NCBI GenBank assembly: GCA_020510985.1 | Contig: CM035838.1 | Location: 342,515,700 to 342,579,699 of the forward strand | DNA: 64,000 bases | Direction of reading: 5' to 3' | DNA from: Pholidichthys leucotaenia | Lineage: Eukaryota | Shown here: piece by piece, positions 8,880-55,199 of the stretch | Layout: every line of letters starts with the position of its first letter | How positions within the stretch are numbered: the first letter of the stretch is position 1 | Made by a program: the position numbers and the translations under genes | The notes under the pieces: model-generated | Seen by the model: the letters and a program-made list of their open reading frames with translations, nothing else | What the model was told of the DNA's origin: nothing | Databases searched by the model: none

Positions 8880-9480
8880 TCATGATGGGTAAAAGACGAG
8901 CTCTCCCAAAACCTACCAGGGAGTCAAAAGGGATAGTTTGAAGAGTAAACCAAGAGCCAAGGACAACCCTGAAAGATCTCCAGAAAGACTTTGAGGCGGC
9001 AAAATTGTGACAGAGAAAACAACAGGCAATGCACTCTACTATAATGGGCTACATCCATGCTCACCTCTCCAAGAGTCCATTATTAAAGAAAAGACATTGT
9101 TTAAAGTTTGCAAAGCAGCATTTGGACAAGCCTGTGAAATACTGAGTGCAGTGTTGTCGGATGAGATGAACATTCAACTTTTTGACTGTTTGAGAAAGAA
9201 CTGGTAGTGCACATTACCCAAAGAACACTAATCCTACAGTGAAGTTTGGAGGTAGAAGTATCATGGTGTGGGGCTGTTTCTCATCTCATGGTACTGGCAG
9301 ACTTCATGAATTAAAGGAACAATAAATGAACAATCTATTGCCATCCACCAAAATGATGAGACATTCCAGCAGAAACATGATTCCAAACACAAAGTAAGGG
9401 AAACTATTAGTTTGTAACAAAGAAAGTCAAGTTGTTAGACACAGCCCAGTCAATAAGCTGACTTATTAAATTTTCCTATT
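8880..9480 (+). mobile_element. Degenerate Tc1-like transposase fragment
   Basis: PTVKFGGRSIMVWGCFSSHGTGRLHEL and QKHDSKHK-like segments, with stops. Confidence 0.5.
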
Positions 9481-10472: not shown

Positions 10473-10684
10473 CGTGCGGCCGCCTCCTGGGAGTTAGTGG
10501 TGATCTCAATGGCCAGCTGGACGCTCTTCTGCAGGGCGTCCCGTGTGCGTTGGTCCACGGGCTCCACTGACTGGATGTCCACGCTACTGATCACCAGGTT
10601 GTTCTGGCTGAAGCGAAGACTCGGGCGGATCTGCAGCTTCTCGTCAAAGCCGAACACAGCTGAGCAGATGATCCTGTTTGAGTT
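10473..10684 (-). CDS. mvp: MVP exon: [70 protein letters not shown](R)
   Basis: Acceptor ttttttttttgtcctgctccag, donor CG|gtgcga. Matches human NSARIIRTAVFGF...[41 protein letters not shown]. Confidence 0.9.
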
Positions 10685-10886
10685 CTGGAGCAGGACAAAA
10701 AAAAAAAGACATTTTGGCCCAAGTCCACATTCTGTTTATAAATTGCAATGTCACAGCACCCATTTGTCCAAACAGTAGGGAACAGAATAAAAACATGGGT
10801 CCCTTTAAGGTAGGGCTGCCCAAATGAGCCTGAACTACAGACTGTTTAAGTGCATCAGATGAAGATGAAAACAGTGGAACTCAAAC

Positions 10887-11031
10887 CTTGTGAAAATCAT
10901 CAAACTGAACGGATGCAACAGCTCCTCTGATCCGCGAGGCGATTGCTTTAGAGGCGTCGCCCACAAAGTCAGGGACGGAAAACAGAGCTGCTGCATCAGC
11001 AGGGTCTGTTCTAGACTTCACCTCAAAATGC
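10887..11031 (-). CDS. mvp: MVP exon: (W)[48 protein letters not shown]
   Basis: Acceptor cccctccatcccctcag, donor CACAAG|gtttga. Matches human [48 protein letters not shown]. Confidence 0.9.
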
Positions 11032-11390
11032 CTGAGGGGATGGAGGGGCCACGGTTAGAAACTCAGTCACATAACATGATGGAAAGGGTATACATAATAG
11101 AGTAGACATAATGAGAGAAAAGTATCTGAATTATTTAGACATTAACCTGCAGAATTACAGTGGTGTGAAAAAGTGCTTGCCCCCTTCCTGATTTCTCATG
11201 TTTTGTATGTTTGTCACACTTAAATAAATGTTTCAGACCATCAAATTTAAATATTAGACAAAGATAACACAAGTAAACACAAAAATGCAGTTTTTTAAAT
11301 GAAGGCGTTTATTATTAAGGAGGAAAAAAAAAATCCAAACCTAAATGGCCCTGTGTAAAAAAGTGATTGCCCCCCCGTTAAAACATAAAT

Positions 11391-11530
11391 TAAGTAAGTA
11401 AGATAAGCCTTTATTAGTCCCACAACGGGGAAATTCCAGGATTGCAACAGCACAGGGATAGCAACACTCAGAGCAACAATCAGAAGGCAAGAAAAAAAAA
11501 AAAAAAAACAAGCAAGCAAGAGCAGCTAAT
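11391..11530 (-). mobile_element. Inverted LINE 3'-terminal segment (last about 135 bp of the LINE 3'UTR, ending in (taaga)n)
   Basis: Reverse complement of 15111-15247 and 47855-47988. Confidence 0.75.
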
Positions 11531-11683
11531 ATTTTATTTTTTTTATTTTTTCTCTCGGCGCCACACGAGTAGGCTGCCTTTTGCAACAGCGGCTCGATTC
11601 CGAGTCTTTTTCCCTTCCTCTCTCTTTTGATCCGTCTTTTTTTTTTCACCCCACTTATATCACGGACACACAGATCGTCCTAA

Positions 11684-13024
11684 ATGTCTCCTGAGCCGGT
11701 GGACGGAGCCACTGTTTATAGCAGGGTACGATACAGCAGAGAACAGCTGCTAGCATTCAACCGCCACCCGGTCCCATTGGAAAAACTCGACATACCGAGA
11801 GAACTGAGGCGAAAACGCCGCGGCTGCCGGGCTGGAGTAAGGCGGAGGACAAAAAATATAAGGTACAGACCCTCCCTTCCATCTGTTGTCATGGGAAAAG
11901 TACGGTCGATACTGGGAAAGTTAGATGAGCTAGCGGCTATCTCCCGTTATGATAGCACATACCGGGAGTGCTCTCTCCTTTTGTTTACTGAGACGTGGCT
12001 AACTGAACTAGCAGCAGATGCTAACATTGAGCTGGAGGGTTTTCACATGATACGAGCTGACCGAACACCAGAGAGTGGCAAGGCTAGGGGCGGTGGAGTG
12101 ATAATGTATGTTAACAACAACTGGTGCAGACCGGGACATATCACTGTTAAACAACGACACTGCAGCAAAGACATTGAGTTGCTAGCTGTTAGCATGAGGC
12201 CTACATATCTCCCGAGAGAACACTCACACGTGATCTGCATTGTTGTTTATGCAAATCTGACGGCGAACGCTGGGACAGCACGTGACGTCATCCATTCAGT
12301 AACCGGCAGGCTGCAGACAGAACACCCAGATGCTCTTCTCCTCATCTCAGGCGATTTCAACCATGTTTCACTGTCTCCCATTCTACCCACGTTCACCCAG
12401 TATGTCACATGCCACACTAGAGACAATAAAACACTGGATTTATTCTACGCAAACACTAAGGAGGCGTACACCTCATCACAACTCCCCCCACTCGGGAGAT
12501 CGGATCACAACTTGGTTCATCTCCGGCCGGTGTACAAACCCCTAGTGCACAGACAACCTCCGGCCATGCACACTGTGGAGTTATGGTCTGAGGAGACAAT
12601 GGACACCCTAAAGGGCTGTTTTGAAGCCACCGCCTGGAAGCAGCTCTGCGATCCACATGGTGAGGACATCGATGGCCTCATTCACACCTTCACGGGCTAC
12701 CTCAGCTTCTGTGTGGACAAATCCGTTCCCACCAAGACCATACGGCGTCACTCAAACAACAAACCCTGGATCAACCCTGAGATAAAAACACTTCTGAGAG
12801 AGAAGAAGAGGATCTTCAGGTCAGGGAACAGGGAGATGCTGAAGTCCGTACAGAGGGAGCTGAGGAGAAAGATCAGAGAAGGCAAGGACAGCTTCAGGAA
12901 GAAGATGGAGGACAAGCTGCAACAGAGCGACATCAGCGGGGTCTGGAGAAACCTCAAAACCATCTCGGGGCTCCAGAATACCTCCCCCAGGCCACAGGGG
13001 GCAGGGAGTGGGCGAACAACCTGA
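11684..13024 (+). CDS. LINE ORF: N-terminal region plus apurinic/apyrimidinic-type endonuclease (frameshifted from the RT)
   Basis: LLLFTETWL, ISGDFNH and GRSDHNLVHL endonuclease-like motifs. Confidence 0.75.
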   Translation: MSPEPVDGATVYSRVRYSREQLLAFNRHPVPLEKLDIPRELRRKRRGCRAGVRRRTKNIRYRPSLPSVVMGKVRSILGKLDELAAISRYDSTYRECSLLLFTETWLTELAADANIELEGFHMIRADRTPESGKARGGGVIMYVNNNWCRPGHITVKQRHCSKDIELLAVSMRPTYLPREHSHVICIVVYANLTANAGTARDVIHSVTGRLQTEHPDALLLISGDFNHVSLSPILPTFTQYVTCHTRDNKTLDLFYANTKEAYTSSQLPPLGRSDHNLVHLRPVYKPLVHRQPPAMHTVELWSEETMDTLKGCFEATAWKQLCDPHGEDIDGLIHTFTGYLSFCVDKSVPTKTIRRHSNNKPWINPEIKTLLREKKRIFRSGNREMLKSVQRELRRKIREGKDSFRKKMEDKLQQSDISGVWRNLKTISGLQNTSPRPQGAGSGRTT

Positions 13025-13185
13025 ATCTGTTTTTCAATAGATTTGACCAACCGCCCTCCCCCCTGACTGCACAACAACCACTGCTGCCTCTAAAGAAATC
13101 AAGTCCTGCTGCCCACTCCCCACTCCACCAACACCCCCCCACTCCCAACACACAGCCCCCCATCCTGACCCTGACCAGGACCCAG

Positions 13186-14589
13186 GTGAGGACGGAGCTG
13201 AGGAAGATCAAGGTGAGGAAGGCGCCGGGACCGGACGGCATCAGCGCAAAGCTCCTCAAGTCCTGTGCAGACCAGCTGTGTGGGATTGTGACGTATATCT
13301 TCAACATGAGCCTGAAACTGGGGAGGGTACCACAGCTGTGGAAAACATCTTGTGTGGTACCTGTACCAAAAACTTCCCACCCCAAAGACCTGAACAGCTA
13401 CAGACCGGTGGCCTTGACGTCCCACTTGATGAAGACCCTGGAGAGACTGCTCCTTGCTCACCTCCGCCCCCTGGTGGAACCAGCGATGGATCCACTCCAG
13501 TTCGCCTACCAGCATGGCATTGGGGTGGAGGATGCGGTGATCTTCCTCCTTCACCGTTCTCTGTCCCACCTGGAGAAGCCCGGGAATATGGTGAGGATCA
13601 TGTTCTTTGACTTCTCCAGTGCTTTCAACACCATCCAACCGATGATCCTGAAGGACAAGCTGCTGCGCGCAGGGGTGGACCAGCACCTGTCATCATGGAT
13701 CCTGGACTACCTCACGAACCGGCCTCAGTTTGTGAGAACCCGGGACTGTGTGTCCAACACGATCATCAGTAGCACGGGGGCCCCCCAGGGAACGGTGCTG
13801 GCTCCCTTCCTGTTCACTCTTTATACTGCGGACTTCTCACACAACACAACACACTGCCATCTACAGAAGTTCTCTGATGACTCTGCGATCGTTGGCCTCA
13901 TCTCCAATGGAGATGAAGCTGAGTACAGAGGGCTTATCCAGGACTTCGTGGACTGGTGCCATCGGAACTGCCTCCAGATCAACGTGAGGAAAACTAAGGA
14001 GCTGGTGGTGGACTGCCGCAGGCATGGGCAGCCCCTCACAGTACCAGTAAATATACAGGGAACAGACATCGAGATGGTGACATCCTATAAGTACCTGGGT
14101 ATTCATCTGAACAATAAACTAGACTGGTCACACAATACTGATGCACTCTACAAGAAGGGACAGCGCAGGCTGTTCCTGCTGAGGAGACTCAGGTCTTTTG
14201 GTGTACAAGGGGCGCTGCTGAAGTCATTCTATGACACGGTGGTGGCATCAGCCATCACTTTTGGAGTGGTCTGCTGGGGCAGTGGCATTACTGCAGCCGA
14301 TAGGAAGAGACTGAACAAACTGATTAAGAAAGCTAGCTCTGTCCTGGGGCAGCGCCTTGATCCGATGGAGGAGATAGGAGAGAGAAGGACGGTGGCTAAA
14401 CTGTCATCTCTGCTGGAGTCCGAGTTCCACCCTATGCAGGACATACTGGATGCACTGAGGAGCTCATTTAGCAGCAGACTACATCATCCCAGGTGCACAA
14501 CCGAGAGGTTTCGTAGGTCCTTCCTACCAACGGCTGTCAGACTGTACAACCTAAGCAGGGCTGCTCGCAGAGATAGCAAAAAGACGTAA
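13186..14589 (+). CDS. LINE reverse transcriptase
   Basis: FFDFSSAFNTIQP, FSDDSAIVGL (FADD-like) and a C-terminal ...SFLPTAVRLYN. Confidence 0.85.
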   Translation: MRTELRKIKVRKAPGPDGISAKLLKSCADQLCGIVTYIFNMSLKLGRVPQLWKTSCVVPVPKTSHPKDLNSYRPVALTSHLMKTLERLLLAHLRPLVEPAMDPLQFAYQHGIGVEDAVIFLLHRSLSHLEKPGNMVRIMFFDFSSAFNTIQPMILKDKLLRAGVDQHLSSWILDYLTNRPQFVRTRDCVSNTIISSTGAPQGTVLAPFLFTLYTADFSHNTTHCHLQKFSDDSAIVGLISNGDEAEYRGLIQDFVDWCHRNCLQINVRKTKELVVDCRRHGQPLTVPVNIQGTDIEMVTSYKYLGIHLNNKLDWSHNTDALYKKGQRRLFLLRRLRSFGVQGALLKSFYDTVVASAITFGVVCWGSGITAADRKRLNKLIKKASSVLGQRLDPMEEIGERRTVAKLSSLLESEFHPMQDILDALRSSFSSRLHHPRCTTERFRRSFLPTAVRLYNLSRAARRDSKKT

Positions 14590-14699
14590 CAAACTAATAG
14601 TTTTTTGAATGCAAAAGATGCAATAGACTTACACAATGGTCCCCTCCGGCATACAACTAGGAACATACCGGTCGCTATGGAGGGTGAGAATATGTATGG

Positions 14700-15060
14700 G
14701 CACATAATCATACCATGTAGGATAACTAAGTAGACGGTTATGCTGTTTCATTCCATCTAGCAACAATGCTCTGCACTGTGTGTGTTTATATATTTACATA
14801 TTTATTCCATCTAGCTACAATGCTCAGCACTGGGTGTGTTTATATATTTATATATCTACATATTATTCCATCTAGCTACATTGCTCCGCACTGTGTGTGT
14901 TTATATACTTGCATATTTATTCCACCTAGCTGCAATGCTCCGTACTGTGGGTGTTTATATATTTACATATTTATTCCATCTAGCTACAATGCTCTGCACT
15001 GTGTGTTCATATATTCATATATTTATTCCATCCAGCTACAATGCTCTGCACTGTGTGTCT
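14700..15060 (+). repeat. 56-bp tandem satellite (about 6 units: ttccatctagctacaatgctc.gcactgtgtgtgtttatatatttacatatttat) inside the LINE 3'UTR, followed by (gt)n and (ta)n
   Basis: Direct visual periodicity. There are 3 units in LINE copy B (47700-47860). Confidence 0.8.
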
Positions 15061-15247
15061 GTGTGTGTGTGTATATATATATATTTTATAGTAATATGTA
15101 CATATGTATATTAGCTGCTCTTGCTTGCTTGTTTTTTTTCTTGCCTTCTGATTGTTGCTCTGAGTGTTGCTATCCCTGTGCTGTTGCAATCCTGGAATTT
15201 CCCCGTTGTGGGACTAATAAAGGCTTATCTTATCTTATCTTATCTTA

Positions 15248-15271
15248 TACATATGTACATATTACTATAAA

Positions 15272-15308
<37 letters not shown>

Positions 15309-15830
15309 GTGCAGAGCATTGTAGCTGGATGGAATAAATATATGAATATATGAACACACAGTGCAGAGCATTGTAGCTAGATGGAATAAATATGTAAATA
15401 TATAAACACCCACAGTACGGAGCATTGCAGCTAGGTGGAATAAATATGCAAGTATATAAACACACACAGTGCGGAGCAATGTAGCTAGATGGAATAATAT
15501 GTAGATATATAAAAACACAGTGCGGAGCATTGTAGCTAGATGGAATAAATATATAGATATATAAATATAAACACACCCAGTGCAGAGCATTGTAGCTAGA
15601 TGGAATAAATATGTAAATATATAAACACACACAGTGCAGAGCATTGTTGCTAGGTGGGATGAAACAGCATAACCGTCTACTTAGTTATCCTACATGGTAT
15701 GATTATGTGCCCATACATATTCTCACCCTCCATAGCGACCGGTATGTTCCTAGTTGTATGCCGGAGAGGACCATTGTGTAAGTCTATTGCATCTTTTGCA
15801 TTCAAAAAAAAAAAAAAAAAAAACTATTAG
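15248..15830 (-). mobile_element. Inverted LINE 3'UTR fragment (stop-proximal part with the 56-bp satellite; lacks the terminal 135 bp)
   Basis: Reverse complement of 14590-15110. Together with 14590-15110 it forms a palindrome with arms of about 520 bp. Confidence 0.8.
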
Positions 15831-17682
15831 CTGTGGTTTATCACATCTTTGGAAAGCTGAGCTTAATGTCTGTAGCCACACCCAGGCCTGATTTCTGCCA
15901 CACCTGTTCTCAATCACGAAATCACTTAAATAGGACCTGCCTGACAAAGTGAAGTACACCAAAAGATCCTCAAAAGCTAGACATCATGCTGTGATCCAAA
16001 GAAATTCAGGAACAAATGAGAAAAAGTAATTGAGATCTATCAGTCTGGAAAAGGTTGTAAAGCCATTTCTAAAGCTTTAGGACTCCAGCGAACCACAGTG
16101 AGAGCCATTATCCACAAATGGCAAAAACATGGAACAGTGGTGAACCTCCCCAGGACTGGCTGGCTGGCCAAAATTACCCCAAGAATGCAGCAACGACTCA
16201 TCCAAGAGGTCACAAAAGACCCCACAACAACATCCAAAGAACTGCAGGCCTCACTTGCCTCAGTTAAGGTCAGCGTTCATGACTCCACCATAAGAAAGAG
16301 ACTGGGCAAAAATAGTCTGCATGGCAGAGTTCCAAGACAAAAACCACTGTTGAGCAAAAAGAACATAAAAGCTTGTCCCAGTTTTGCCAGAAAAAAATCC
16401 TGACGATCCCCAAGACTTTTGGGAAAATACTCTGTGGACTGACGAGACAAAAGTTGAACTTTTTGGAAGGTGTGTGTCCCATTACATCCGGCATAAAAGT
16501 AACAGCATTTTGGAAAAGGAACATCATACAAATAGTAAAATATGGTGGTGGTGGTAGTGTCATGGTCCGGGGCTGTTTTGCTGCTTCAGGGACCTGGAAG
16601 ACTTGCTGTGGTAAATGGAACCATGAATTCCACTGTCTACCAAAAATTCTTGAAGGAGAATGTCCAGCCATCTGTTCGTGACCTCAAGCTGAAGCGCACT
16701 TGGGTTCTGCAGCAGGACAATGATCCAAAACACACCAGCAAGTCCACCTCTGAATGGCTTAAGAAAAACAAAATGAAGACTTTGGAGTGGCCTAGTCAAA
16801 GTCCTGACCTGAATCTGATTGAGATGCTGTGGCATGACTTTAAAAAGGCACTTCATGCTCAAAAACCCTCCAATGTGGCTGAAATACAACAATTATGCAA
16901 AGATGAGTGGGCCAAAATTCCTCCACAGCGCTGTAAAAGACGCAGTGCCAATTAACGTAAACACTTGATTGCAGTTGTTGCTGCTAAGGGTGGCCCAGCC
17001 AGTTATTAGGTTTAGAGGGCAATCACTTTTTAACACAGGGCCATTTAGGTTTGGATTTTTTCCCTTAATAATAAACACCTTCATTTAAAAACTGCATTTT
17101 TGTGTTTACTTGTGTTATCTTTGTCTAATATTTAAATTTGTTTGATGATCTGAAATATTTAAGTGTGACAAACTTACAAAAAAATGAGAAATCAGGAAGG
17201 GGGCAAACACTTTTTCCCGCCACTGTATATTTTCATCAAGAGAAGTGAAAAAGGCATCTAGAAGCTTTTTTTAATGTGCCATGTTCCTTAAAAATGGTGG
17301 AGTCTTTAAATCAAAGACTATATACCTACATTACTGTGCAAAAGTCTTGAACCACCCCTCATTTTTTAATTACTGCCAGGAAAATGGGAAATAAATGCTG
17401 ATGTTTGCTAAAACACACAAAATACAGCATTTAGGGGAGAAACCTTTTGTACAATTCAAACAAACCTTCTAGTCAATATTTATGATTACCCCTTTGATTC
17501 TTCAGCACAGTCTGAACTCTTATTCAGCCTTCTTGTAACTTCTTCAAATGTTAAATTTTATCGATTTTTTTTTAAATAAATATTTTACAAAATAAATGAG
17601 CTGACTCCCCCCACCCCCCACTGTTGTGCAAAGAACAAAGTCCAACAACCTGTCTTTAGTACCCGACTCAGTGCTCGCTTAC

Positions 17683-17880
17683 CAGTTGTAGGAGAGCTGC
17701 AGCTGCAGGCGGGCGTGGTCAGCCGTCTCAATGGTGATGATGTCAGTGAAAAAGTCTGGTCCCAACAGGAGGCAGACAGACTTGTTGACATTAGCCCTCT
17801 TGGGTTTGTCCCCAGACAGTGACAGCACGGTGAACTGCTCATCAGGTCCCAGCATCACCATCTCGGGTCCAAACACCACC
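17683..17880 (-). CDS. mvp: MVP exon: (R)[65 protein letters not shown](W)
   Basis: Acceptor cttgactgcag, donor TG|gtaagc. Matches human [66 protein letters not shown]. Confidence 0.9.
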
Positions 17881-17983
17881 CTGCAGTCAAGACCATCGAC
17901 AGTTTAACTGCTTTATTAAACCCCTAAACACACACACACACACACACACACACACCCCAGAGCAGCAGGGCGGGAGGTCCCAC

Positions 17984-20014: not shown

Positions 20015-20391
20015 GCAGGGCAGCACAGTGGCGCAGTGGTTAGCACTGTGTCAGCACAGCAAGGTCATGGGTTCAATCCCACCTCCAGACCATCGGTGAC
20101 CCTTCTGTGTGGAGTTTGCATGTTCTCCCCATGTCTGCGTGGGTTTACTCCGGATACTCCAGTTTCCTCCCACAGGCCAAAGACATGCAGGTGAGGTTAA
20201 TTGTCATCAGCTGGGGATTCTAAATTGTCCTTAGGTATGACTGTGAGAGTGAATGGTTGTCTGTCTCTGTGTTGGCTCTGCGATGGACTGGAGATCTGTC
20301 CAGGGTGTACCCTGCCTCTTGTCCAAAAGATGCTGGGATAAGCTCCAGCCCCCGCGACCCGAAGAGGATTAAACAGAAGAAGACGAATGGA
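20015..20391 (+). mobile_element. tRNA-derived SINE with 7-bp TSD TGAATAT
   Basis: tRNA-like head ggcagcacagtggcgcagtggttagcac...gggttcaatccc. The body is shared with the copies at 38908-39232 (minus strand), 43099-43483 and 44383-44500. TGAATAT flanks both ends (20008-20014 and 20392-20398). Confidence 0.75.
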
Positions 20392-20682
20392 TGAATATTC
20401 ACCCTTTTATTTTTCAAGTAGTCACAGCTCTGACAGCATTGTCTCCAGCTTGTTCTGAGCTCTTAAATTAGAAGCACTCAATATCTTAAATCATTTAGAT
20501 TCAATTCATACCAATTCTCAGTGGTCTGTCTTGTAGCTTTCATCACCATTCTAAATAAAAAGGTATCCCTCTGTGACATTTTGTTTTCAAGTCCAGATCA
20601 CAATTACTGAATGTTTTTGGGTTTTGTTTTTTTTTTTTTTTTTAAAAACTTAAAGACCTCCATCAGTTCCTGAAACTCCTAC

Positions 20683-23172: not shown

Positions 23173-24233
23173 CTGAAGATGATCACAGAAAGGTTAGTCA
23201 ACCCTGGCATGGCATATGCAACAAAATACAGCTTAAACTTTATAAAAGTTATCTTTCTAGGCGTCATTTTAGGCAAGTAATGATAAAAAATATCCAATGG
23301 TTCTCCATTATTTTCAACTTTCAGCAATGAAACGACCCCAGTGACCAAGCTGACATACCAAACATCTGTACATCAGTGGCCCCTAATGAGAACTGATCAA
23401 CATCAAATGTGTGGGAAAAATACACGTCCCTCTGCCCAAAAATGGAATCCCTCATTTCAGTCGAAACTTCTGTATAAAGAGGAAGCCAATGCAATCAGAA
23501 ATGTAGAAGTTATACTGGTGACAATATAAAATGGAGTGAAAAGGTAAACCTTTTTTTAAGTTCTAGCCACAATAATTTTTCTACTGATGTCCGAGCTTAA
23601 TTCTGCTTAGCTTGGTGAGACTATGCCACATTTTTGTTTAGCCATTTCACTTAATCTACGTTTTTATTCACTTAACCTTCTGCTAATAATTTAAACGTTT
23701 GTGGAAATGTGGAAATGTGAAAATGACGAGGCAGAGTTTATCTCACGAGTCAGGTTTATTCACATCTTCCAACATCAGCAAAGCAGAAAGAGGAAAAAAC
23801 ATAGACATTCGTCCTTTATATATCCAGGACCTTCAAAGCTCACAGTCACATTGCCTTTAATCACAAGTAACAGTGCATCTTCTCTGAGATCCCATAACCC
23901 CCACATAGTCTCTGGCAGACCAGGAAATCCCCCCGTCTCTTGCATACCAAAGACTAAATTTTCACATCCTCCTGTTATCTCCAAGGAGACCCAGTTCTTT
24001 GTTCTCTCTGAGATGTGAAGCTTAAAGTGATACACATGCGTCCCACATGACCCCCCCAAACATCTAAGATGGAACAACAGAATAACAGTTTGCATGTCAT
24101 GATAAAATCATTACACATTAACCCACGTGCTGCTTGGGCCTCAGTCTCCTCCCATATCTGCTGTAAGCGGGCTTTGCCACTTCTGCGGCGCCATCCCGCT
24201 GGGGCGCTGCTGTCTTGGGGTGAGAACTGTTCG

Positions 24234-25253
24234 TCACTCCCTGTGGGTGTTCTGGGGAATGTCCCTGGGGGGGGGGGGGGGGGGGGTCTGCCCTGCCCTG
24301 GCCAACAGCACACCCTCGTCCGCCACCACAAAGGCGGGTTTGAGCCTGTTTATGCCAATCTTTTCCTTCCTGCCACCCAAATCTAGCAAAAAATGTTTGT
24401 CCCCTGTTTCCAGCACTCTAAATGGTCCATCATAAGGTGGTCGCAGCGGTGGGCGATGGGCATCATGTCTGACAAAAACAAATTCCGCGTTTTTCAAAGC
24501 CTCAGGCACAAAAACGCACGGAAAACTGTGGTGAACGGGGCCAGGCAGCGTGCCCGATTCTGTGCCACGCTGCAACCGCTGAGATGGGGAGCTATCTGGC
24601 ACAGGGTTATCTGGGAGAAACTCCCCGGGCAGTCGAAGTGGTTGCGCAAAAACTAGCTCAGCCGGGGAGGCTTCCAAGTCCTCTTTAGGTGCAAAATGCA
24701 ACCCCAATAAAACCCACGGTAGCCTGTCCACCCAATTTGCATCCGTCAGCGACGCTCTGAGAGCCGCTTTCAATGACCTATGAAAACGTTCGCATAACCC
24801 ATTAGCCTGCGGACTGTACGTGGTTGTGCGGTGGATCGTTACCCCCAGGCTGCGGGCCATTGCTGACCAAAGTTCGGAAACAAATTGAGGGCCTCTGTCG
24901 GACGTAATGTCCGACGGGACTCCAAAGCGCGCTACCCATGCTGTTAAAAACGCGCGCGCCACCTCCTCGGCTGTGGTTGACGCCAGTGGGACCACTTCCG
25001 GCCAGCGCATGGTGCGGTCCACCATTGTCAGGAGGTATGTGCACCCCTGTGACGGTGGGAGGGGGCCTACGAGGTCCACGTGAACATGATCGAACCTCTT
25101 AGCCGGGATGTGAAACGGCTCCAAGGGAGCTTTCGTGTGTTTGTGTACCTTGGCTCGTTGACAAGCCATGCAGGCTGCCGCCCACTCCTTAACTTGTTTG
25201 CGCAGGCTCGGCCATACAAATTTCTCTCCTACCATTTTGACCGACGCGCGCAC
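24234..25253 (-). CDS. Retrotransposon integrase
   Basis: [28 protein letters not shown] and ITSDRGPQF. Confidence 0.8.
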   Translation of the reverse strand: MRASVKMVGEKFVWPSLRKQVKEWAAACMACQRAKVHKHTKAPLEPFHIPAKRFDHVHVDLVGPLPPSQGCTYLLTMVDRTMRWPEVVPLASTTAEEVARAFLTAWVARFGVPSDITSDRGPQFVSELWSAMARSLGVTIHRTTTYSPQANGLCERFHRSLKAALRASLTDANWVDRLPWVLLGLHFAPKEDLEASPAELVFAQPLRLPGEFLPDNPVPDSSPSQRLQRGTESGTLPGPVHHSFPCVFVPEALKNAEFVFVRHDAHRPPLRPPYDGPFRVLETGDKHFLLDLGGRKEKIGINRLKPAFVVADEGVLLARAGQTPPPPPPRDIPQNTHRE

Positions 25254-25991
25254 TCACGGGTGCGCCAGAAAATGAATCGAGTCAAAGACGCGGCGGCGCC
25301 ACGCGGCCGGTACCGCAAGACGCGGTCGCCCAGTGGAGACATCGCAGATTAGGGGGAGCGTACCGTCTTGCAGCACCCTGTTCTCCAGCCTTAACCCTGT
25401 TGGTCCAGACTGGAGCGCGCGCACGTCCGCGTCGCTAACCTGATCCGCGGCCATGGCTGCATAATCTATCCCTACGCGGACTGGGGCCGCCACGGCGCGC
25501 GGGAGACAGTCTGCCACTACATTAAGTTTACCCGCCACATGCTGAATATCGGTAGTAAACTCTGAGATAGCGGCCAGCTGTCTTTGCTGCCGGCCTGACC
25601 ACGGTTCTGAAACCTTGGCCATCGCGAATGTCAGCGGCTTGTGGTCAACGAACGCGGTGAAACGGCGTCCCTCCAGCCAGAACTGGAAGTGGCAAATGGC
25701 CAAGTGGAGAGCTAACAACTCCCTGTCGAATGCGCTGTATTTTCGTTCACTATCGCGCAAAGTCCTGCTGAAAAAGGCGAGCGGCTGCCAAGCCCCGGCT
25801 ACATGCTGCTCCACGACCGCCCCTATGGCCACATCTGACGCGTCAGTAGTGAGCGCTATGCAGGCCGTTGGGTCTGGATGTGCTAACAATGCAGCGTTTG
25901 CCAGGGCTGTTTTGACCTCCGAGAATGCTCGCTCTCGCTCCAGAGACCATTCGATCTTATTTGTGGGTTTTTGTTTTTTTGAGTGCGGCAT
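25254..25991 (-). CDS. Retrotransposon RNase H region
   Basis: TDASDVAIGAVVEQ...[13 protein letters not shown]. Confidence 0.75.
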   Translation of the reverse strand: MPHSKKQKPTNKIEWSLERERAFSEVKTALANAALLAHPDPTACIALTTDASDVAIGAVVEQHVAGAWQPLAFFSRTLRDSERKYSAFDRELLALHLAICHFQFWLEGRRFTAFVDHKPLTFAMAKVSEPWSGRQQRQLAAISEFTTDIQHVAGKLNVVADCLPRAVAAPVRVGIDYAAMAADQVSDADVRALQSGPTGLRLENRVLQDGTLPLICDVSTGRPRLAVPAAWRRRVFDSIHFLAHP

Positions 25992-26782
25992 ACAATGGTT
26001 GCGTGAGCTGCGCTGCGCGGGGGAGGAAACGGTTATAAAAATTCACCATTCCCAAAAACTCCTGTAACGCCTTGACCGTTTGTGGCTGGGGAAAATTTGC
26101 TACAGCGCGCAGTTTGTCAGGCAGCGGAACCGCTCCTTCTGGAGAGACGCGATGCCCCAAAAAAATCAATCTGCGTCACCCCGAACTGACACTTCGCTGG
26201 GTTGATTATTAAACCATGCTCTCCCAACCTCCGGAAAACTGCCGTGAGGTGTTTTTCGTGTTCGTCTTCGGACGCGCTGGCTACTAAGATGTCGTCCAGG
26301 TAGATGAATACGAAGGGGAGATCACGCAACACCGCTTCCATCATGCGTTGGAACGTCTGTGCAGCGCCTTTAAATCCAAACGGCATGCGCAAAAACTCGA
26401 ATAGCCCAAACGGAGTTATCACCGCTGTTTTGGGTATGTCCTCAGCGCACACTGGGACTTGGTGGTAACCGCGGACCAAGTCTACCTTACAAAAAACGCG
26501 CGCCCCCGCCAAATGAACGGAAAAATCTTGGATATGCGGGATTGGGTAGCGGTCGTGCGCTGTAGCGTTGTTCAACCTGCGGAAATCTCTGCAAGGTCGC
26601 CACGAGCCGTCAGCTTTCGGGACCATGTGAAGCGGGGAAGCCCATGGGCTGTTCGAACGCCTGATGATGCCCAACCTTTCCAGGTTGGCGAACTCCTCGT
26701 GCGCTATGGTCAGTTTAGCTGAATCCAAGCGCCGAGCTTTTGCAAAAACGGGCGGCCCGGTGGTAGTAATAAAATGTTCCAC
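25957..26782 (-). CDS. Retrotransposon reverse transcriptase (two frameshifted ORFs)
   Basis: [36 protein letters not shown] and [13 protein letters not shown]. The frameshift lies near 26117-26169. Confidence 0.8.
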
Positions 26783-26881
26783 CCCGTGTTTAGCGACGGC
26801 TGCTGAAAATGTGGGAACCGTGAGTGCTGGGAACTGAGTGAGCAGTGTGTGGAACTTACCGCTTGCAGCTGTGACGTATAC

Positions 26882-27304
26882 TCAGGCTGTACAGGGAATA
26901 GAATAAAAAGAAAGTGCATTAACCAGGCGCCTGTTAGCAAGATCAACCAACAAACCATGTGAGCACAGAAAATCAGCCCCCAACATATTGAAATTCACTG
27001 CAGCTATGACAAAAGTCCACTCAAATGTACGGCCGTGTAGGGACATAAGCAGAGTCCTCTCACCAAAGGTCTTAATCTCCGAGCCGTTCGCTGCTGACAC
27101 CCCAGGACCTCTGGAAACCGCCAGCCGGTCAGCGGAGGAAGGTGTGATGAAACTCAACTGGGAGCCTGTGTCCACGAGAAAATGCCTCCCCAAGCGCGCA
27201 TCCTTCAAGTAGAGCAGCTTGTTCTCCTCCCCGAGGGCCGCAGCTGCTACCGACCCCCGGTCTTGGCGTTTCCCGAGAGCTTGAACTGGCACGGTGGTAT
27301 ACAT
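26882..27304 (-). CDS. Retrotransposon aspartic protease
   Basis: FLVDTGSQLSFI (DTG active site). Confidence 0.7.
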   Translation of the reverse strand: MYTTVPVQALGKRQDRGSVAAAALGEENKLLYLKDARLGRHFLVDTGSQLSFITPSSADRLAVSRGPGVSAANGSEIKTFGERTLLMSLHGRTFEWTFVIAAVNFNMLGADFLCSHGLLVDLANRRLVNALSFYSIPCTA

Positions 27305-28029
27305 TTGCGTGCCTTCTCTGCAAAGCGGCGATGGTAGAAACAGAGGATGTCTTCTCCATGATCCTTGGCCCCCGCCACCGCTGTCGTCGGTGGTTCTGCT
27401 ACTGCCGTCTCTGGCCCCCCGCCATCTCCGGCCATCGTGCTGAACTCCGTCGCTGCTGCGGTGGCAGCGCGCCGTTTGCTGGCGTTGAGAATCCAGTGCG
27501 CTTCCTGGGCCAGCGCGCGGAAGTCCCGCTGGGCCAACAATGGCAAGCTGGCCAGGGTCGCTCTCATGGCCGATGGTAGGGTCCTGAGGAAAATGTGGGT
27601 GAAGATGAAGTCGTCGTTGTCTGAGCCCCTCAACCTCAGCATGTCCTCCATCAGGTCAATGGGCGTGCCATCTCCCAAGTCGTTCAGAGCCAGGAGCCTC
27701 TCCGCTCTCTCCTCGACTGAGAGAGTGAAACGCTGGATGAGTGCAGCCTTCAACCCGCCGTATTTGTCGTTGGCCGGTGGCCGCTCCAATATGCTCTGCA
27801 CATGCCGAGCCGTGCGGTTGTCGAGCTTTGCAATCACATGGTAGAACTTCGTGTCATTTACCGTTATCCCCCGGAGGGCGAATTGTGCTTCGACCAAGTG
27901 GAACCAGGAGCACGGGTTGTCTTGCCAAAAGTCCGGTAGCTGGACCGTAGCGGCATACGCTTGGCTGGGAGCTCCTGACTCGGCTGGCCCGGGGGACTTT
28001 CTTTTGTCCATGATACGTCTTAGGGTCAC
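27247..28029 (-). CDS. Retrotransposon gag-like protein with no recognisable CCHC knuckle
   Basis: 260-aa ORF starting just inside the primer-binding site (MDKRKSPGPA...). Homologous to the gag of copy 3. Confidence 0.6.
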   Translation of the reverse strand: MTLRRIMDKRKSPGPAESGAPSQAYAATVQLPDFWQDNPCSWFHLVEAQFALRGITVNDTKFYHVIAKLDNRTARHVQSILERPPANDKYGGLKAALIQRFTLSVEERAERLLALNDLGDGTPIDLMEDMLRLRGSDNDDFIFTHIFLRTLPSAMRATLASLPLLAQRDFRALAQEAHWILNASKRRAATAAATEFSTMAGDGGGPETAVAEPPTTAVAGAKDHGEDILCFYHRRFAEKARKCIPPCQFKLSGNAKTGGR

Positions 28030-28590
28030 CAGTGTGGAAATGTGAAAATGACGAGGCAGAGTTTATCCCACGAGTCAGGTTTATTCACATCTTCCAACAT
28101 CAGCAAAGCAGAAAGAGGAAAAAACATAGACATTCGTCCTTTATATATCCAGGACCTTCAAAGCTCACAGTCACATTGCCTTTAATCACAAGTAACAGTG
28201 CATCTTCTCTGAGATCCCATAACCCCCACATAGTCTCTGGCAGACCAGGAAATCCCCCCATCTCCTGCATACCAAAGACTAAATTTTCACATCCTCCTGT
28301 TATCTCCAAGGAGACCCAGTTCTTTGTTCTCTCTGAGATGTGAAGCTTAAAGTGATACACGTGTCCCACACGTTCATCATTTTAGCAAGTTAACTCTGCA
28401 CATTCAATTTTATCTCTTTGACCACATTTACAGACGTGGCGACAAGCCACAGCTTTATCACCACCTTTAACCATTTAATTATTCACCGACACCAACTGCA
28501 TTGTACATTTTCAATCAGCCACGATACAGGTCCAGTTCAAGTAAAGACGGAATTAGAAGTTGAAAGAATTACAGGGAGACATTTTCTCAC

Positions 28591-38907: not shown

Positions 38908-39232
38908 TTATCTATCCATCTTCTTCCGCTTAATTCTTTTCGGGTCGTGGGGGGGCTGGAGCCTATCCCAGCATCTTTGTGCAAGAGGCAGGGTACACCC
39001 TGGACAGATCGCCAGTCCATCGCAGGGCCAACACAGAGAGACAGACAACCATTCACTCTCACAGTCATACCTAAGGACAATTTAGAATCCCCAGTTTGAT
39101 GCCAATTAACCTAACTTGCATGCTTCTGGCATGTGGGAGGAAACCGGAGAAATCCCGGCGTAAACCCACGCAGACACGGGGAGAACATGCAAACTCCACA
39201 CAGATCACTGTTGGTCGGGGGCTGGGATCTTG
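38908..39232 (-). mobile_element. tRNA-derived SINE (same family as the one at 20015)
   Basis: Reverse complement of the SINE consensus (ccatccatcttcttccgcttaat...cccagcatctttg...gggtacaccctggaca). Confidence 0.75.
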
Positions 39233-40751: not shown

Positions 40752-42346
<1,595 letters not shown>

Positions 42347-43085: not shown

Positions 43086-43098
43086 CTGTTGTAGTCAG

Positions 43099-43483
43099 GG
43101 CGGTGCGGTGGCAGAGTGGTTAGCACTGCAGCAGCACAGCAACTCACCCTTAGCCGGGGGATCCCGGGTTCGATAACAGCCCCTGACCAACAATGATTTG
43201 TGTGGAGTTTGCATGTTCTCCCCATGTCTGCGTGGGTTTACTCCAGGATTTCCTCCCACATCCCAAAAACATGCAAGTTGGGTTAATTGGCATCAACCGG
43301 GGATTCTAAATTGTCCTTAGATATGAATGTGAGAGTGAATGGTCTTCTGTCTCTCTGTTCTGTGTTGGCCCTGTGATGGACTGGCGATCAGGGTGTACCC
43401 TGCCTCTCGCCCAAAGATGCTGGGATAGGCTCCAGCACCCCTGCGACCTGAAAAGGATTAAGCGGAAGAAGATGGATAGATGG
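43099..43483 (+). mobile_element. tRNA-derived SINE with 12-bp TSD TGTTGTAGTCAG
   Basis: The head gcggtgcggtggcagagtggttagcactgcag...gggttcgat and the body are shared with the other copies. The identical 12-mer lies at 43087-43098 and 43484-43495. Confidence 0.8.
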
Positions 43484-44965: not shown

Positions 44966-45159
44966 CACACATATATATTTTCCATGTCAGCCATCATTCC
45001 TTCGGCACGTGTCTGCCACCTTGTAAACTGTCCGATAAATAGAGATTAGTACAAATTCTCAGTATAGCCGGGGGACGTCAGTAAGTTGTCAAGTGCAGTT
45101 GCTGTGCCACTGGGGGCGCGTGACCCATCCATTTAATCTGGGCGGTTACACACTTTATA

Positions 45160-47988
45160 CATCACGGACACACAGATCGCCCCAAATGTCTCCCGAGCCG
45201 GTGGACGGAGCCACTGTTTACAGCAGGAGACGGTACAGCAGGGAACAGCTGCTTGCACTTGATCGCCACTCGGTGCTAACGGAAAAACTCGACGTACCGG
45301 GAGAAATAAGGCGAAAACGACGTGATTGTCGGGCTGGTGTTAGACGGTGGACAAGGAATATAAGGTACAGACCCACCCTCCCATCCGTTGTTATGGGGAA
45401 TGTACGATCTACGTATATTGGGAAAGGTAGATGAGCTAGCGGCTATCTCCCGCTACGATAGCATATACCGGGAGTGCTCCCTCCTTTTGTTTACCGAGAC
45501 GTGGCTAACTGAACTAGTAGCAGATGCTAACATTGAGCTGGAGGGTTTCCACGCTGGCTGTTTTGAAACCACCGCCTGGGAGCAGCTCTGCGATCCACAT
45601 GGTGAGGACATCGATGGCCTCACTCACACCATCACGGACTACATCAGCTTCTGTGTGGACAACACCGTTCCCACCAAGACCATACAGTGTTGCTCAAACA
45701 ACAAACCCTGGATCAACCCTGTGATAAAAACACTTCTGAGAGAGAAGAAGAGGATCTTCAGGTCGGGGAGCAGGGAGATGCTGAAGTCCGTACAGAGGGA
45801 GCTGAGGAGAAAGATCAGAGAAGGCAAGGACAGCTTCAGGAAGAAGATGGAGGACAAGCTGCAACAGAGCGACATCAGCGGGGTCTGGAGAAACCTTAAA
45901 ACCATCTCTGGGCTCCAGAATACCTCCCCCCAGGCCACGGGGGGCAGGGAGTGGGCGAACAATCTGAATCTGTTTTTTAATAGGTTTGACCAACCGCCCT
46001 CCCCCCCCCGACTGCACAACAACCACTGCTGCCTCTGAAGACATCAAGTCCTGCTGCCCACTCCCCACTCCACCATCACCCCCCCACTCCCAACACACAG
46101 CCCCCCAACCTGACCGTCACTAAGACCCAGGTGAGGACAGAGCTGAGGAAGATCAAGGCGAGGAAGGCGTTGGGACCGGACGGCATCAGTGCAAAGCTCC
46201 TCATGTCCTGTGCAGACACATGTGTCCTGTGTGGGATTGTGGAGTACATCTTCAACCTGAGCCTGAAGCTGGGGAGGGTACCACAGTTGTGGAAAACACC
46301 TTGTGTGGTACCTGTACCAAAGACTTCCCACCCCAAAGATCTGAACAGCTACAGACCAGTGGCCCTGACGTCCCACATGATGAAGACCCTGGAGAGACTG
46401 CTCCTTGCTCACCTCCGCCCCCTGGTGGGACCAGCAATGGATCCACTCCAGTTCGCCTACCAGCATGGTATTGGGGTGGAGGATGCGGTCATCTTCCTCC
46501 TTCACCGTTCTCTGTCCCACCTGGAGAAGCCCGGGAATGCAGTGAGGATCATGTTCTTTGACTTCTCCAGTGCTTTCAACACCATCCAACCGATGATCCT
46601 GAAGGACAAGCTGCTGTGCGCAGAGGGTGGACCAGCACCTGTCATCATGGATCCTGGACTACCTCACAAACCGGCCACAGTTTGTGAGAACCCGGGACTG
46701 TGTGTCCGACACAATTATCGGTAGCACGGGGGCCCCCCAGGGAACGGTTTTGGCTCCCTTCCTGTTCACCCTTTATACTGCGGACTTCTCACACAACACA
46801 ACACACTGCCATCTACAGAAGTTCTCTGACGACTCTGCGATCGTTGGCCTCATCTCCAACGGAGATGAAGCTGAGTACAGAGGGCTTATCCAGGACTTTG
46901 TGGACTGGTGCCATCGAAACTGCCTCCAGATCAACGCGAGGAAAACTAAGGAGCTGGTGGTGGACTGCCGCAGGCAAGGACAGCCCCTCACAGCACCAGT
47001 AAACATCCAGGGAACAGACTTTGAGATGGTGACATCCTACAAGTACCTGGGTGTTCATCTGAACAATAAACTAGACTGGTCACACAATACTGACGCACTC
47101 TACAAGAAGGGACAGCGCAGGCTGTTCCTACTGAGGAGACTCAGGTCTTTTGGTGTACAAGGGGTGCTGCTGAAGACATTCTACGACACGGTGGTGGCAT
47201 CAGCCATCACTTTTGGAGTGGTCTGCTGGGGCAGTGGCATTACAGCAGCCGATAGGAAGAGACTGAACAAACTGATCAAGAAAGCTAGCTCTGTCCTGGG
47301 GCAGCGCCTTGACCCAGTGGAGGAGATGCGAGAGAGAAGGATGGTGGCTAAACTGTCATCTCTGCTGGAGTCCGAGTTCCACCCTATGCAGGACACACTG
47401 AATGCACTGAGGAGCTCATTTAGCAGCAGACTACATCATCCTAGGTGCACAACCGAGAGGTTTTGCAGGTCCTCCCTACCAACGGCTGTCAGACTGTATA
47501 ACCTAAGCAGGGCTGCTCGCAGAGATAGCAAAAAGGCGTGACAACCTAATAGTACTGAATGCAAAAGGCGCAATAGACTTACACAATGGTCCCCTCCGGT
47601 ATACAACTAGGAAAATACCGGTAGCTACGGAGGGTGACAATATGTATGGGTACATAATCATACCATGTAGGATAACTAAGTAGACAGTTATGCTGTTTCA
47701 TTCCATCTAGCTACAATGCTCTGCACTGTGTGCGTTTATATATTCATATATTTATTCCATCTAGCTACAATGCTCCGCACTGTGTTTATATATCTATATA
47801 TTTATTCCATCTAGCTACAATGCTCCGCACCGTGTGTCTATATATTTATGTTTATATGTACATATGTATACTCGCTGCTCTTGTTTTTTTCTTGCCTTCT
47901 GATTGTTGCTCTGAGTGTTGCTATCCCTGTGCTGTTGCAATCCTGGAATTTCCCCATTGTGGGACTAATAAAGGCTTATCTTATCTTA
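45160..47988 (+). mobile_element. LINE copy B (same family as 11653-15247) with an internal deletion in the endonuclease region and a frameshifted RT
   Basis: Same 5' end (tatacatcacggacacacagatcgcc). ORF fragments at 45093-45434, 45388-46038, 46131-46724 and 46627-47541 are 85-90% identical to copy A. The 3'UTR has only 3 satellite units and ends in cttatcttatctta. Confidence 0.8.
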
Positions 47989-52936: not shown

Positions 52937-54507
52937 TACGGTGGTGTGAAAAAGTGTTTGCCCCCTTCCTGATTTCTAATTTTTTTGTACGTTTGTCACA
53001 CTTAAAGGTTTCAGATCAAACAGATAACACAAGTAAACACAAAATGCAGTTCTTAAATTAAGGTATTTATTATCAAGGGGAAAAAAATCCAAACCTACAT
53101 GGCCCTGTGTGAAAAAGTGATTGCCCCTTAAACCTAATAACTGGTTGGGCCACCCTTGGCAGCAACAACTGCAATCAAGCATTTGCGATAACTGGCAATG
53201 AGTCTTTTACAGCGCTGTGGAGGAATTCTGGCCCACTCATCTTTGCAGAATTGTTGCAATTCCGCCACATTGGGGGTTTTTCAAGCATTCAGGTCAAGAC
53301 TTTGACTAGGCCACTCCAAAGTCTTCATTTTGTTTTTCTTAAGCCATTCAGAGGTGGATTTGCTCGTGTGTTTTGGATCATTGTCCTGCTGCAGAACCCA
53401 AGTACGCTTCAGCTTGAGGTCACGAACAGATGGCTGGACATTCTCTTTCAGGATTTTTTGGTAGACAGCAGAATTCATGGTTCCATTTATCACAGTAAGT
53501 CTTCCAAGTCCTGAAGCAGCAAAACAGTCCCAGACTATCACACTACCACCGCCATATTTTACCATTGGTATGATGTTCCTTTTCTGAAATGCTGTGTTAC
53601 TTTTATGCCGGATGTAATGGGACACACAATTTCCAAAAAGTACAACCTTTGTCTCGTCAGCCCATAATATTTTCCCAAAAGTCTTGGGGATCATCAAGAT
53701 GTTTTCTGGCAAAACTAAGACGAGCCTTTATGCCCTTTTTGCTCAGCAGTGGTTTTCATCTTGGAACTCAGCCATGCAGGCCATTTTTGCCCAGTCTCTT
53801 TCTTATGGTTGAGTCATGAACCCTGACCTTAACTGAGGCAAATGAGGCCTGCAGTTCTTTGGGTGTTGTTGTGGGGTCTTTTGTGACCTCTTGGATGAGT
53901 CGTCGCTGTGCTCTTGGAGTAATTTTGGTTGGGCGGCTACTCCTGGGAAGGTTCACCACTGTTCCATGTTGTTGCCATTTGTGGATAATGGCTCTCACTG
54001 TGGTTTGCTGGAGTCCCAAAGCTTTAGAAATGGCTTTATAACCTTTCCAGATTGATACATCTCAATTACTTTGTTTCTCATTTGTTCCTGAATGTCTCTG
54101 GATTGCAGCATGATGTCTAGCTTTTGAGGATCTTTTGGTCTACTTCATTTTGTCAGGCAGGTCCTATTTAAGTGATTTCTTGATTGAGAACAGGTGTGGC
54201 AGTAATCAGGCCTGGGTGTGGCTCGAAAAATTGAACTCAGCTTTCCATAGATGTGATAAACCACGGTTAATTTAGATTTTAACGGGACGGGGGGGGGGTG
54301 TCACTTTTTCACAGGACCATGTAGGTTTGGATTTATTTATTTTTTTTAACCCTTAATAATAAACATCCTCATTTAAAAACTGCATTTTGCATTTACTTGT
54401 GTCATCTTTGTCTAATATTTAAATTTGTTTGATGATCTGAAACATTTAAGTGTGACAAACATACAAAAAAAATGAGAAATGAGGAAGGGGGCAAACACTT
54501 TTTCACA
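52937..54507 (-). mobile_element. Tc1-like DNA transposon (same family as 11146-17228), uninterrupted but with a frameshifted transposase
   Basis: TIRs tacggtggtgtgaaaaagtgtttgccccc at 52937 and the reverse complement ending at 54507. Minus-strand transposase fragments (TVRAIIHKWQQHGTVVNLPRSSRPTKITPRAQRRLIQEVTKDP; [38 protein letters not shown]). Confidence 0.8.
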
Positions 54508-55199
54508 CCACTGTATATTGCTTTATCATGTCAGGTCAGGCACTGGTTTGCTTGCTACCGGATAACCATGAAGACTGGTACTACCCGTCTCAAGGGTAGG
54601 GCCGTTGGCGACTCAACCGGCAGCCCCACCCTTCCGAGGGCATGGAGGGTAAAACTGAGCATCCTGGCAGAACTAAAAACAATATCTGTCACAGATCTAT
54701 GGTGGACCACTCCCAGTTACACAGGGTGAGACTGGACATCCTGGTAGATAAGCACATCTGTTGCAAGGTCTGTGGTGGACTTTTGCCAGTCGATGCATCG
54801 TGACATGCACTACACAAAGAGCAGAGATAAACAAACCTATCATCTGGTTAGCCACTGCAACAGATACTGGAGTTAGTCTTGGTTTGTCCTTGCCACTGAT
54901 AAGACTGGTCAACACCAAATTTATTGTCGAAGTTTTTTTAGCTGATTTAGGACAATTTTGATGTGCTGAATCCAAAAATTACATTGATTTTGCTCAATCA
55001 GGTCAACTTTTTGAACTATGGCCACATTTTTTACGTTTTTTGTTTACATGTATGGGTATTTTCGCTTTATATGATGCAGAATTATTTTTTATTTCTTGAA
55101 ATTCTCTGAATTTTGAACAATGATGATGTAACATTAAATTTACATGTACTTACCTTTATCAATATCTACTATTCAATTTACAGTACAACTGTACAACTG

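Follow-up and report, generated by a model that had tools for sequence, protein, structure and literature searches.

How does the intron of a gene come to hold a retrotransposon that is bracketed by two inverted pieces of its own 3' end? The question is raised by the major vault protein gene (mvp) of Pholidichthys leucotaenia, in a window of 64,000 nucleotides (assembly GCA_020510985.1, contig CM035838.1, positions 342,515,700 to 342,579,699 of the forward strand), this being the whole stretch of DNA that was analysed. In one mvp intron a full-length, apparently Rex1-like long interspersed nuclear element (LINE) lies between two inverted pieces of a LINE 3' untranslated region (3'UTR), and all of this lies inside a Tc1-like DNA transposon. 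The arrangement very probably arose by three successive, independent transposon insertions into the same intron. The anatomy, the seamless closure of the interrupted elements and the differences between the two 3'UTR copies were read directly; from them we infer the order and timing of the insertions, the details of target-primed reverse transcription (TPRT) and the consequences for the gene. The parts of the nest are as follows, open reading frame being abbreviated as ORF, reverse transcriptase as RT, variable number tandem repeat as VNTR and Tandem Repeats Finder as TRF.

11156 to 11157, no strand: TA target-site duplication to the left of the Tc1-like element, read from the sequence.
11158 to 11393, plus strand: left part of the Tc1-like element, ending where the LINE insertion begins and including the left terminal inverted repeat.
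11394 to 11531, minus strand: 3'-terminal part of an older LINE fragment (last ~135 nt of the 3'UTR, 3' box and tail).
11532 to 11645, plus strand: 5' junction stretch of ~114 bp, pyrimidine-rich, for which no source sequence was matched.
11646 to 15247, plus strand: full-length Rex1-like LINE (inserted block including the 5' junction stretch, 11532 to 15247).
11684 to 14589, plus strand: LINE ORF with an endonuclease-like region and RT, one frameshift near 12984.
14590 to 15247, plus strand: LINE 3'UTR.
14750 to 15058, plus strand: 54-bp VNTR in the LINE 3'UTR (TRF).
15224 to 15248, plus strand: (CTTAT)5 tail (TRF).
15248 to 15830, minus strand: 5' part of the older LINE fragment, equivalent to 14594 to 15110 of the plus-strand 3'UTR.
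15831 to 17225, plus strand: right part of the Tc1-like element, with the decayed transposase and the right terminal inverted repeat.
17226 to 17227, no strand: TA target-site duplication to the right of the Tc1-like element, read from the sequence.

The outer host shows the features of a Tc1/mariner element, namely a TA duplication, terminal inverted repeats and a DDE transposase with an N-terminal helix-turn-helix domain. Its left terminus, TA followed by CAGTGGTGTG, is mirrored by CCACTG followed by TA at 17220-17227. The terminal repeats of ~215 bp (11156-11372 versus 17227-17017) are 88.7% identical, and self-comparison of 10500-17800 returned the corresponding inverted pairs 11156-11204 versus 17179-17227 and 11242-11298 versus 17084-17140. 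Pieces of the transposase ORF matched the Pfam domains HTH_Tnp_Tc3_2 (PF01498, 1.7e-19) and DDE_3 (PF13358, 2.9e-14), and the gene is decayed by frameshifts and stops, with 15 stop codons in one frame. BLAST against the whole window revealed a second Tc1-like copy on the minus strand at 52937-54519, which begins with the same letters, TACAGTGGTGTG, and is 86% identical to the split element over 1408 bp. When aligned with this copy, the split element is contiguous without loss, ...ATAAATTAA (11393) leading directly to CTGTGGTTTATCAC (15831). Since the Tc1 sequence runs without loss from 11393 to 15831, everything from 11394 to 15830 is insert. The first-pass annotation had placed the start of the element at 11146 and its junction with the LINE at 11390/11391; these positions are corrected to 11158, after the TA at 11156-57, and to 11393/11394.

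The insert is nested in turn. The reverse complements of 15248-15830 and 11394-11531, joined in this order, form one 721-bp 3'UTR sequence on the minus strand that is collinear from end to end with the plus-strand 3'UTR at 14594-15247 (633 matches and 11 mismatches, 633/644). The join is exact: an uninterrupted GCTAA-TATA-CATATG is split into GCTAA-TAT (11525-11532) and TATA-CATATG (15246-15255), and the overlap at the junction amounts to TA/TAT only, that is, a possible target duplication of 0-3 bp at the inner LINE. At the far left, the inverted pair 11399-11502 versus 15129-15232 (104 nt, 99% complementary), with its collinear continuation, agrees with the earlier statement that this piece holds the last ~135 bp of the LINE 3'UTR. 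When the inserts were removed in silico, the Tc1-like element and the 3'UTR fragment both closed seamlessly. The alignments thus bear out what had been proposed for the locus, a Tc1 element split by a full-length LINE between inverted halves of a 3'UTR, and the two inverted pieces are indeed complementary halves of one 3'UTR, collinear and joined at the exact base. The self-comparison of 10500-17800 recovered every repeat that had been described.

The ends of the inserted elements are marked by a conserved 3' box, which consists of AATTTCCC, a short loop and GGGA-N-AATAAAG and is followed by taxon-specific tandem repeats of 3-6 nt. Both LINE copies in the nest end with this box and a (CTTAT)-type tail, and the inner one has a full ORF. 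In the older fragment, the 3' part carries the box as AATTTCCCCGTTGTGGGACTAATAAAGG, followed by a degenerate tail of the (CTTAT) type next to Tc1, and the 5' part is truncated at CTAATAG and abuts Tc1 at 15831. The box was found at 15198-15247, 47949-47988 and, on the minus strand, 11394-11445; these are exactly three occurrences in the window and they coincide with its three LINE 3' ends. The third end belongs to another LINE copy, which was used as outgroup and reference:

45158 to 47988, plus strand: LINE copy 2, found by BLAST against the window, 5.3% diverged in the coding part.

Related elements in five metagenome contigs of fish origin terminate in the same box, as do full-length elements of Epinephelus moara and Stigmatopora nigra (L001-L007); the metagenome contigs came from a scan with the 26-nt 3' box, and their similarity was confined to the last ~60 bp. 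Because box and tail mark LINE ends across copies and fishes, 11394 and 15247 are genuine termini of retrotransposition.

The two 3'UTR copies are 98.3% identical overall. Four of the 11 mismatches lie in the degenerate tail and the other seven are substitutions in the body; indels are limited to two T-runs (+14 and +9, with lengths of 20 versus 6 and 17 versus 8), a (TG)n run (+4), a VNTR unit (+50) and the tail. Because VNTR units, homopolymers and seven body positions differ, the copies are regarded as independent retrotransposition products, which stem from slightly different RNAs or differ in age. This and the seamless closure support the earlier suggestion that the target of the LINE was an inverted copy from its own family, older and consisting of 3'UTR only. 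The decay of the successive layers, from the diverged terminal repeats and broken transposase of Tc1 through the closely similar 3'UTR copies to the near-open frame of the inner LINE, agrees with the nesting order, and Tc1 is clearly the oldest of the three elements. With copy 2 as outgroup, the outer fragment carries three private substitutions versus about two, counts that are too small for a firm order of the two LINE insertions.

The history may be pictured as follows. A Tc1-like DNA transposon would first have inserted at a TA in the intron and decayed later. A Rex1-like LINE would then have entered it in minus orientation by TPRT, probably with priming at an AT-rich, TTAA-like site, and reverse transcription would have halted after ~720 nt, leaving a 3'UTR-only copy with its own tail. 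Soon after, the same young subfamily would have supplied a full-length RNA that was inserted in plus orientation at the TATA inside this fragment. As the second LINE brings the same 3'UTR in the opposite orientation, the 517/583-bp inverted repeat at this locus is a by-product. Before the last insertion the LINE family occupied ~3.55 kb of ~60 kb (~6%) in the window; since the family already makes up this share, it is no rarity for a randomly placed LINE to hit a family member.

Four points weigh against this history. No target-site duplications of 7 bp or more were found at the junctions of either LINE copy; in copy 2 there were a few 7-8-bp k-mer matches, all away from its junction. The 5' junction includes ~114 bp (11532-11645) to which no element was assigned, so that the 5' boundary of the inner LINE is uncertain by this length. 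The structure is known from the assembled sequence alone. Finally, for a LINE to hit 721 bp of family sequence would be a coincidence if the family were rare genome-wide. For L2-clade LINEs of fish, target-site duplications that are short or missing have been reported, as have additional nucleotides at the 5' junction (PMC4245944), and by analogy such nucleotides are one possible origin of the ~114-bp stretch. It could equally be a subfamily-specific 5'UTR or a 5' transduction. Nothing else in the window was similar to the stretch (11532-11650, ~114-120 bp), not even the sequence in front of copy 2, and homology with copy 2 starts at ~11646-11656; in this respect the ~120 bp of unplaced sequence that had been noted in front of the LINE stood. 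No Rfam family was found in 11532-11645. The only Rfam match in the region, to mir-297 (E 0.41), lies on an AT-rich (TG/AC)n stretch and was taken as chance.

The inner LINE itself is nearly intact. Its ORF is free of stop codons, and the one lesion that breaks it is the loss of 1 bp near 12984, where the C-run is C5 against C6 in copy 2. The RT domain RVT_1 (PF00078) was detected with E 2.1e-27 and 96.6 bits against a cut-off of 29.6, and PF09004 also matched in the ORF (2e-05); Exo_endo_phos (PF03372) reached E 0.0066 and 16.7 bits, under its cut-off of 24.5, at residues 88-275, with position and length as expected. The first-pass annotation was right about a full-length LINE on the plus strand; it had overlooked the frameshift, and the block begins at 11532, or at 11646 without the junction stretch. 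If the indel near 12984 were a homopolymer sequencing error, the LINE would be fully intact and potentially active. Copy 2 is in a poorer state, with an internal deletion equivalent to 12047-12613, several frame breaks and ~3 VNTR units. The near-intact full-length copy and the 98% identity of the two copies in the nest show that the Rex1-like family has been active very recently.

Attribution of the LINE to a family was based on several features. The nearest RT proteins are teleost, unnamed or labelled generically as 'reverse transcriptase' or 'jockey', with 68-79% amino-acid identity. The site of primer RTX1-F1 was found with one mismatch at 13612-13632, in both LINE copies, where chance predicts zero matches; the best site for RTX1-R1, at 14163, has 6/24 mismatches and would give a product of ~575 bp. 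Both are diagnostic Rex1 PCR primers (PMC3728117). As far as Volff et al. (2000) are summarised in PMC6274825, the Rex1 3' end is conserved and then carries oligonucleotide tandem repeats of variable length. In its overall plan, its RTX1-F1 site and its 3' end the LINE fits what has been published on Rex1 (PMC6274825), and on these features it is a putative Rex1-like, CR1-related element.

Upstream of the box, the 54-bp VNTR comprises 5.6 units in the full-length LINE (14750-15058), 6.6 units in the older fragment (15300-15657) and ~3 in copy 2 (47697-47850). The Epinephelus moara element (L006, ~9100-9400) has a tandem-repeat block in its 3'UTR too. Such repeats in front of the conserved 3' box may thus characterise the clade. 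Amid otherwise unrelated 3'UTRs the stem of the box varies in a compensatory-looking way (CCCC/GGG, CCCCC/GGGG and CCCG/CGGG). As the comparison of species suggests, the small conserved stem (UCCC...GGGA) is likely a hairpin that the RT recognizes; single-sequence folding of the last 137 nt gave a z-score of ~0 against shuffles, which is not significant.

A second possibility is that the LINE did not land in its own family by chance and that its ribonucleoprotein was attracted by genomic copies of the LINE 3'UTR in antisense orientation, either by RNA-DNA pairing (R-loop) or by an endonuclease preference for the TATA stretch in the 3'UTR; self-nesting would then recur. One of the three insertion events of the family in the window did hit its own 3'UTR in the opposite orientation, and the LINE RNA would be expected to pair fully with the top strand of the target over ~650 nt. 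However, copy 2 (45158-47988) has no inverted 3'UTR pieces at its flanks, such pieces are also absent around the full-length relatives in Epinephelus moara and Stigmatopora nigra, and the insertion site, which the first-pass annotation had thought might be a specific internal one, is an AT-rich TATA that gives no evidence of self-targeting. The cluster at the E. moara locus consists of unrelated LINE families and reflects general accumulation of transposable elements (TEs). The present case was picked for its oddness, so that n=1 has no statistical weight, and the local family density given above makes a chance landing plausible. We therefore regard homing as unlikely. It is quite improbable that inverted self-nesting goes beyond chance in a wider sense, be it that homing to the 3'UTR makes such palindromes recur across a very large, TE-expanded genome, or that small RNAs from an mvp hairpin repress the nearly intact LINE family in the manner of a Mu killer-like trap in a vertebrate; recurrent inverted self-nesting genome-wide, if true, would bear on LINE target choice. 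As for the E. moara locus itself (L006, 5418-12914, in a BCAS3 intron), a 5'-truncated LINE from a different family directly adjoins the tail of a full-length Rex1-like LINE, with more LINE fragments upstream and an inverted one downstream, several families being clustered head to tail and inverted within 7 kb.

A third explanation invokes a single event, in which twin priming or template switching in one TPRT reaction made all pieces. The 98.3% identity of the 3'UTR copies and the lack of clear target-site duplications between events would be consistent with it. Twin priming as Ostertag and Kazazian are said to have described it in 2001 yields an inverted internal piece and a direct 3' piece that are neighbours in the RNA and share one tail. 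The anatomy found here does not fit such a product, which had been offered as an explanation before: there are three segments, the 3'UTR 14594-15247 is present in both orientations, and a separate tail belongs to the inverted part, at its outer border with Tc1 (11394), which makes two tails in total. In addition, the RT would have to leave its template after 135 nt, work through an antisense one of 3.7 kb and resume on the first at the exact next base, and a single event leaves the differences in VNTR unit number and at seven sites between the copies to be explained. This scenario is extremely unlikely. The same low standing is given to an assembly artefact, in which a long read that was chimeric or folded back, or a wrong join of LINE copies, produced the inverted segments. 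Palindromes are a known class of artefact in long-read assemblies, and the sole frameshift, being in a homopolymer, hints at residual sequencing error. Against this, the arm ends match TE boundaries (LINE tail/Tc1 at 11394 and truncation/Tc1 at 15830) in a Tc1 that is contiguous, the arms are non-identical in a VNTR unit, homopolymer lengths and seven substitutions, and the 137-bp spacer is itself duplicated at 11394-11531; a fold-back read would produce no such features. Three further rearrangements were rejected: an inversion through recombination of inverted copies does not divide one copy into halves on either side, a fold-back duplication leaves the piece 11394-11531 at the far left without an origin, and retrotransposition of the whole 4.4-kb block is at odds with a right end without a LINE tail and a left end that is an inverted tail.

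Three nested insertions thus being the preferred account, the resulting inverted repeat can be described:

14594 to 15110, plus strand: left arm, within the 3'UTR of the full-length LINE, 517 bp.
15248 to 15830: right arm, 583 bp.
15111 to 15247: spacer, 137 bp.

The arms match over 14601-14861 versus 15549-15809 (261 nt, 97% complementary) and 14847-15084 versus 15276-15513 (238 nt, 98% complementary), the innermost parts being 15052-15110 and 15246-15304 with 135 nt between them. Repeats of such length and identity are far beyond chance. The arms differ in length because the inverted copy has an extra 54-bp unit and longer homopolymers; of the ~520-bp arms and ~135-bp spacer given by the first-pass annotation, the spacer stood (135-137 bp) and the arms are corrected to 517 and 583 bp.

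The repeat lies in a gene that was identified as mvp through protein matches carrying vault Pfam domains, the best of them being MVP of Pholidichthys leucotaenia. The intron is bounded by these exons:

10887 to 11030, minus strand: mvp coding exon, downstream flank of the intron in gene sense, human MVP residues ~546-593 (tblastn, 79% identity, E 3.7e-18).
17682 to 17885, minus strand: mvp coding exon, upstream flank of the intron in gene sense, human MVP residues ~478-545 (tblastn, 76% identity).

The intron between them, 11031-17681, measures 6651 bp, of which the transposon nest takes 6072 bp (91%); its designation as mvp intron 11 is plausible. By tblastn the coding exons detected in the window run from 51572 down to 7440 on the minus strand, opposite to the strand given in the first reading, and the gene spans more than 44 kb here. 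In mvp pre-mRNA the full-length LINE is consequently antisense and the older fragment sense. Folding of the mvp-sense (minus) strand of 14590-15835 gave a single hairpin of ~520 bp at −942.5 kcal/mol, and on this model an intramolecular double-stranded RNA (dsRNA) hairpin likely forms in mvp pre-mRNA.

The proposal of a cruciform or fragile site is weakened. High arm identity was present (97-98%, in gap-free blocks); a very short spacer was not. In yeast double-stranded DNA (dsDNA), an increase of the spacer from 12 to 100 bp cuts recombination induced by inverted repeats (IRs) ~300-fold (PMC10164571). With ~12-20 bp wanted, the 137-bp spacer and the 50-bp asymmetry of the arms argue against efficient cruciform extrusion. 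Interaction of the arms in single-stranded DNA is possible, and the risk of recombination or deletion is likely modest. The inverted repeat implies no function, its likely consequences being passive. Read mapping, PCR and RNA-seq at mvp may suffer from the 520-bp hairpin, and, as modelled, RNA-editing or small-RNA pathways could act on it.

The surroundings are rich in repeats. Sequence that recurs inside the window makes up at least 36.5% of it. The second Tc1-like copy lies upstream of mvp, ~1.4 kb from the first coding exon detected (51572) and near the promoter region. A Tc1-like remnant (66% identical) at 41834-42163 and a divergent RT fragment on the minus strand at 63363-63998, cut by the end of the window and with 33% amino-acid identity to the LINE, are further signs of a heavy TE load. 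A family of retroelements of the long terminal repeat (LTR) type occurs at 23708-28370, 57853-62300 and 1-2551. In the copy at 23708-28370 the 340-bp terminal repeats (23708-24047 and 28033-28370) are 98% identical, and it is therefore young; a second copy has terminal repeats that are 91.5% identical, and the third is partial, at the window edge. Two of these copies lie within the mvp exon span (7440-51572) or just downstream, and the one at 57853-62300 is upstream of the gene. Three mvp introns contain a short interspersed repeat of ~320-400 bp, 77-87% identical (20016-20396, 38910-39229 and 43096-43483), a family that could be a short interspersed nuclear element (SINE) or a miniature inverted-repeat transposable element (MITE). 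The chromosomes of Pholidichthys leucotaenia are unusually large, with a record of 492,896,000 bp, far above typical percomorph size, which suggests a strongly TE-expanded genome. In a literature search on Pholidichthys genome size that did not require the genus name, none of the 10 papers listed of 12,134 hits named Pholidichthys.

In comparison with known systems, the structure is of a well-understood, common and already known kind, and its value lies mainly in annotation, as a clean textbook case of two insertions from one LINE family in opposite orientations that create a long inverted repeat in a gene; repeat annotation should give three elements here, not five fragments. With nested 'Russian-doll' TE insertions (LINE in LINE, TE in Tc1) it shares the collinear halves, the younger inner elements and the TE-dense intron, and it differs only in that the nested LINEs are of the same family in opposite orientation, hence the long inverted repeat. 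The LINE resembles Rex1/Babar of teleosts in its single ORF, with an AP-endonuclease-like region (apurinic/apyrimidinic; sub-threshold here) upstream of RT, and in 5' truncation, a conserved 3'UTR end with oligonucleotide repeats and the RTX1-F1 site; differences are the 6/24 mismatches at the RTX1-R1 site, the 68-79% identity to the nearest RTs and the 54-bp VNTR of 3 to 6.6 units in its 3'UTR. L1 twin-priming inversions likewise place LINE sequence in both orientations at one locus, but have two non-redundant segments, whereas three segments, a duplicated 3'UTR and two tails are seen here. At Mu killer-type loci an inverted partial duplication of a transposon gives a hairpin transcript that silences the family. 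The present locus is similar in that an inverted partial copy lies beside a direct copy and would be read through from a host promoter, that of mvp, which could yield hairpin RNA with homology to the LINE; its hairpin, however, covers the 3'UTR only and is intronic, and the likeness, drawn from sequence, is hypothetical. Finally, as in inverted Alu pairs and other long IRs (PMC10164571), retroelement sequences of the same family are inverted at 97-98% identity, and the strong predicted RNA hairpin is shared with intronic inverted TE pairs that form dsRNA, whereas fragile dsDNA IRs differ in having a spacer of ~12-20 bp in place of the 137 bp found here.

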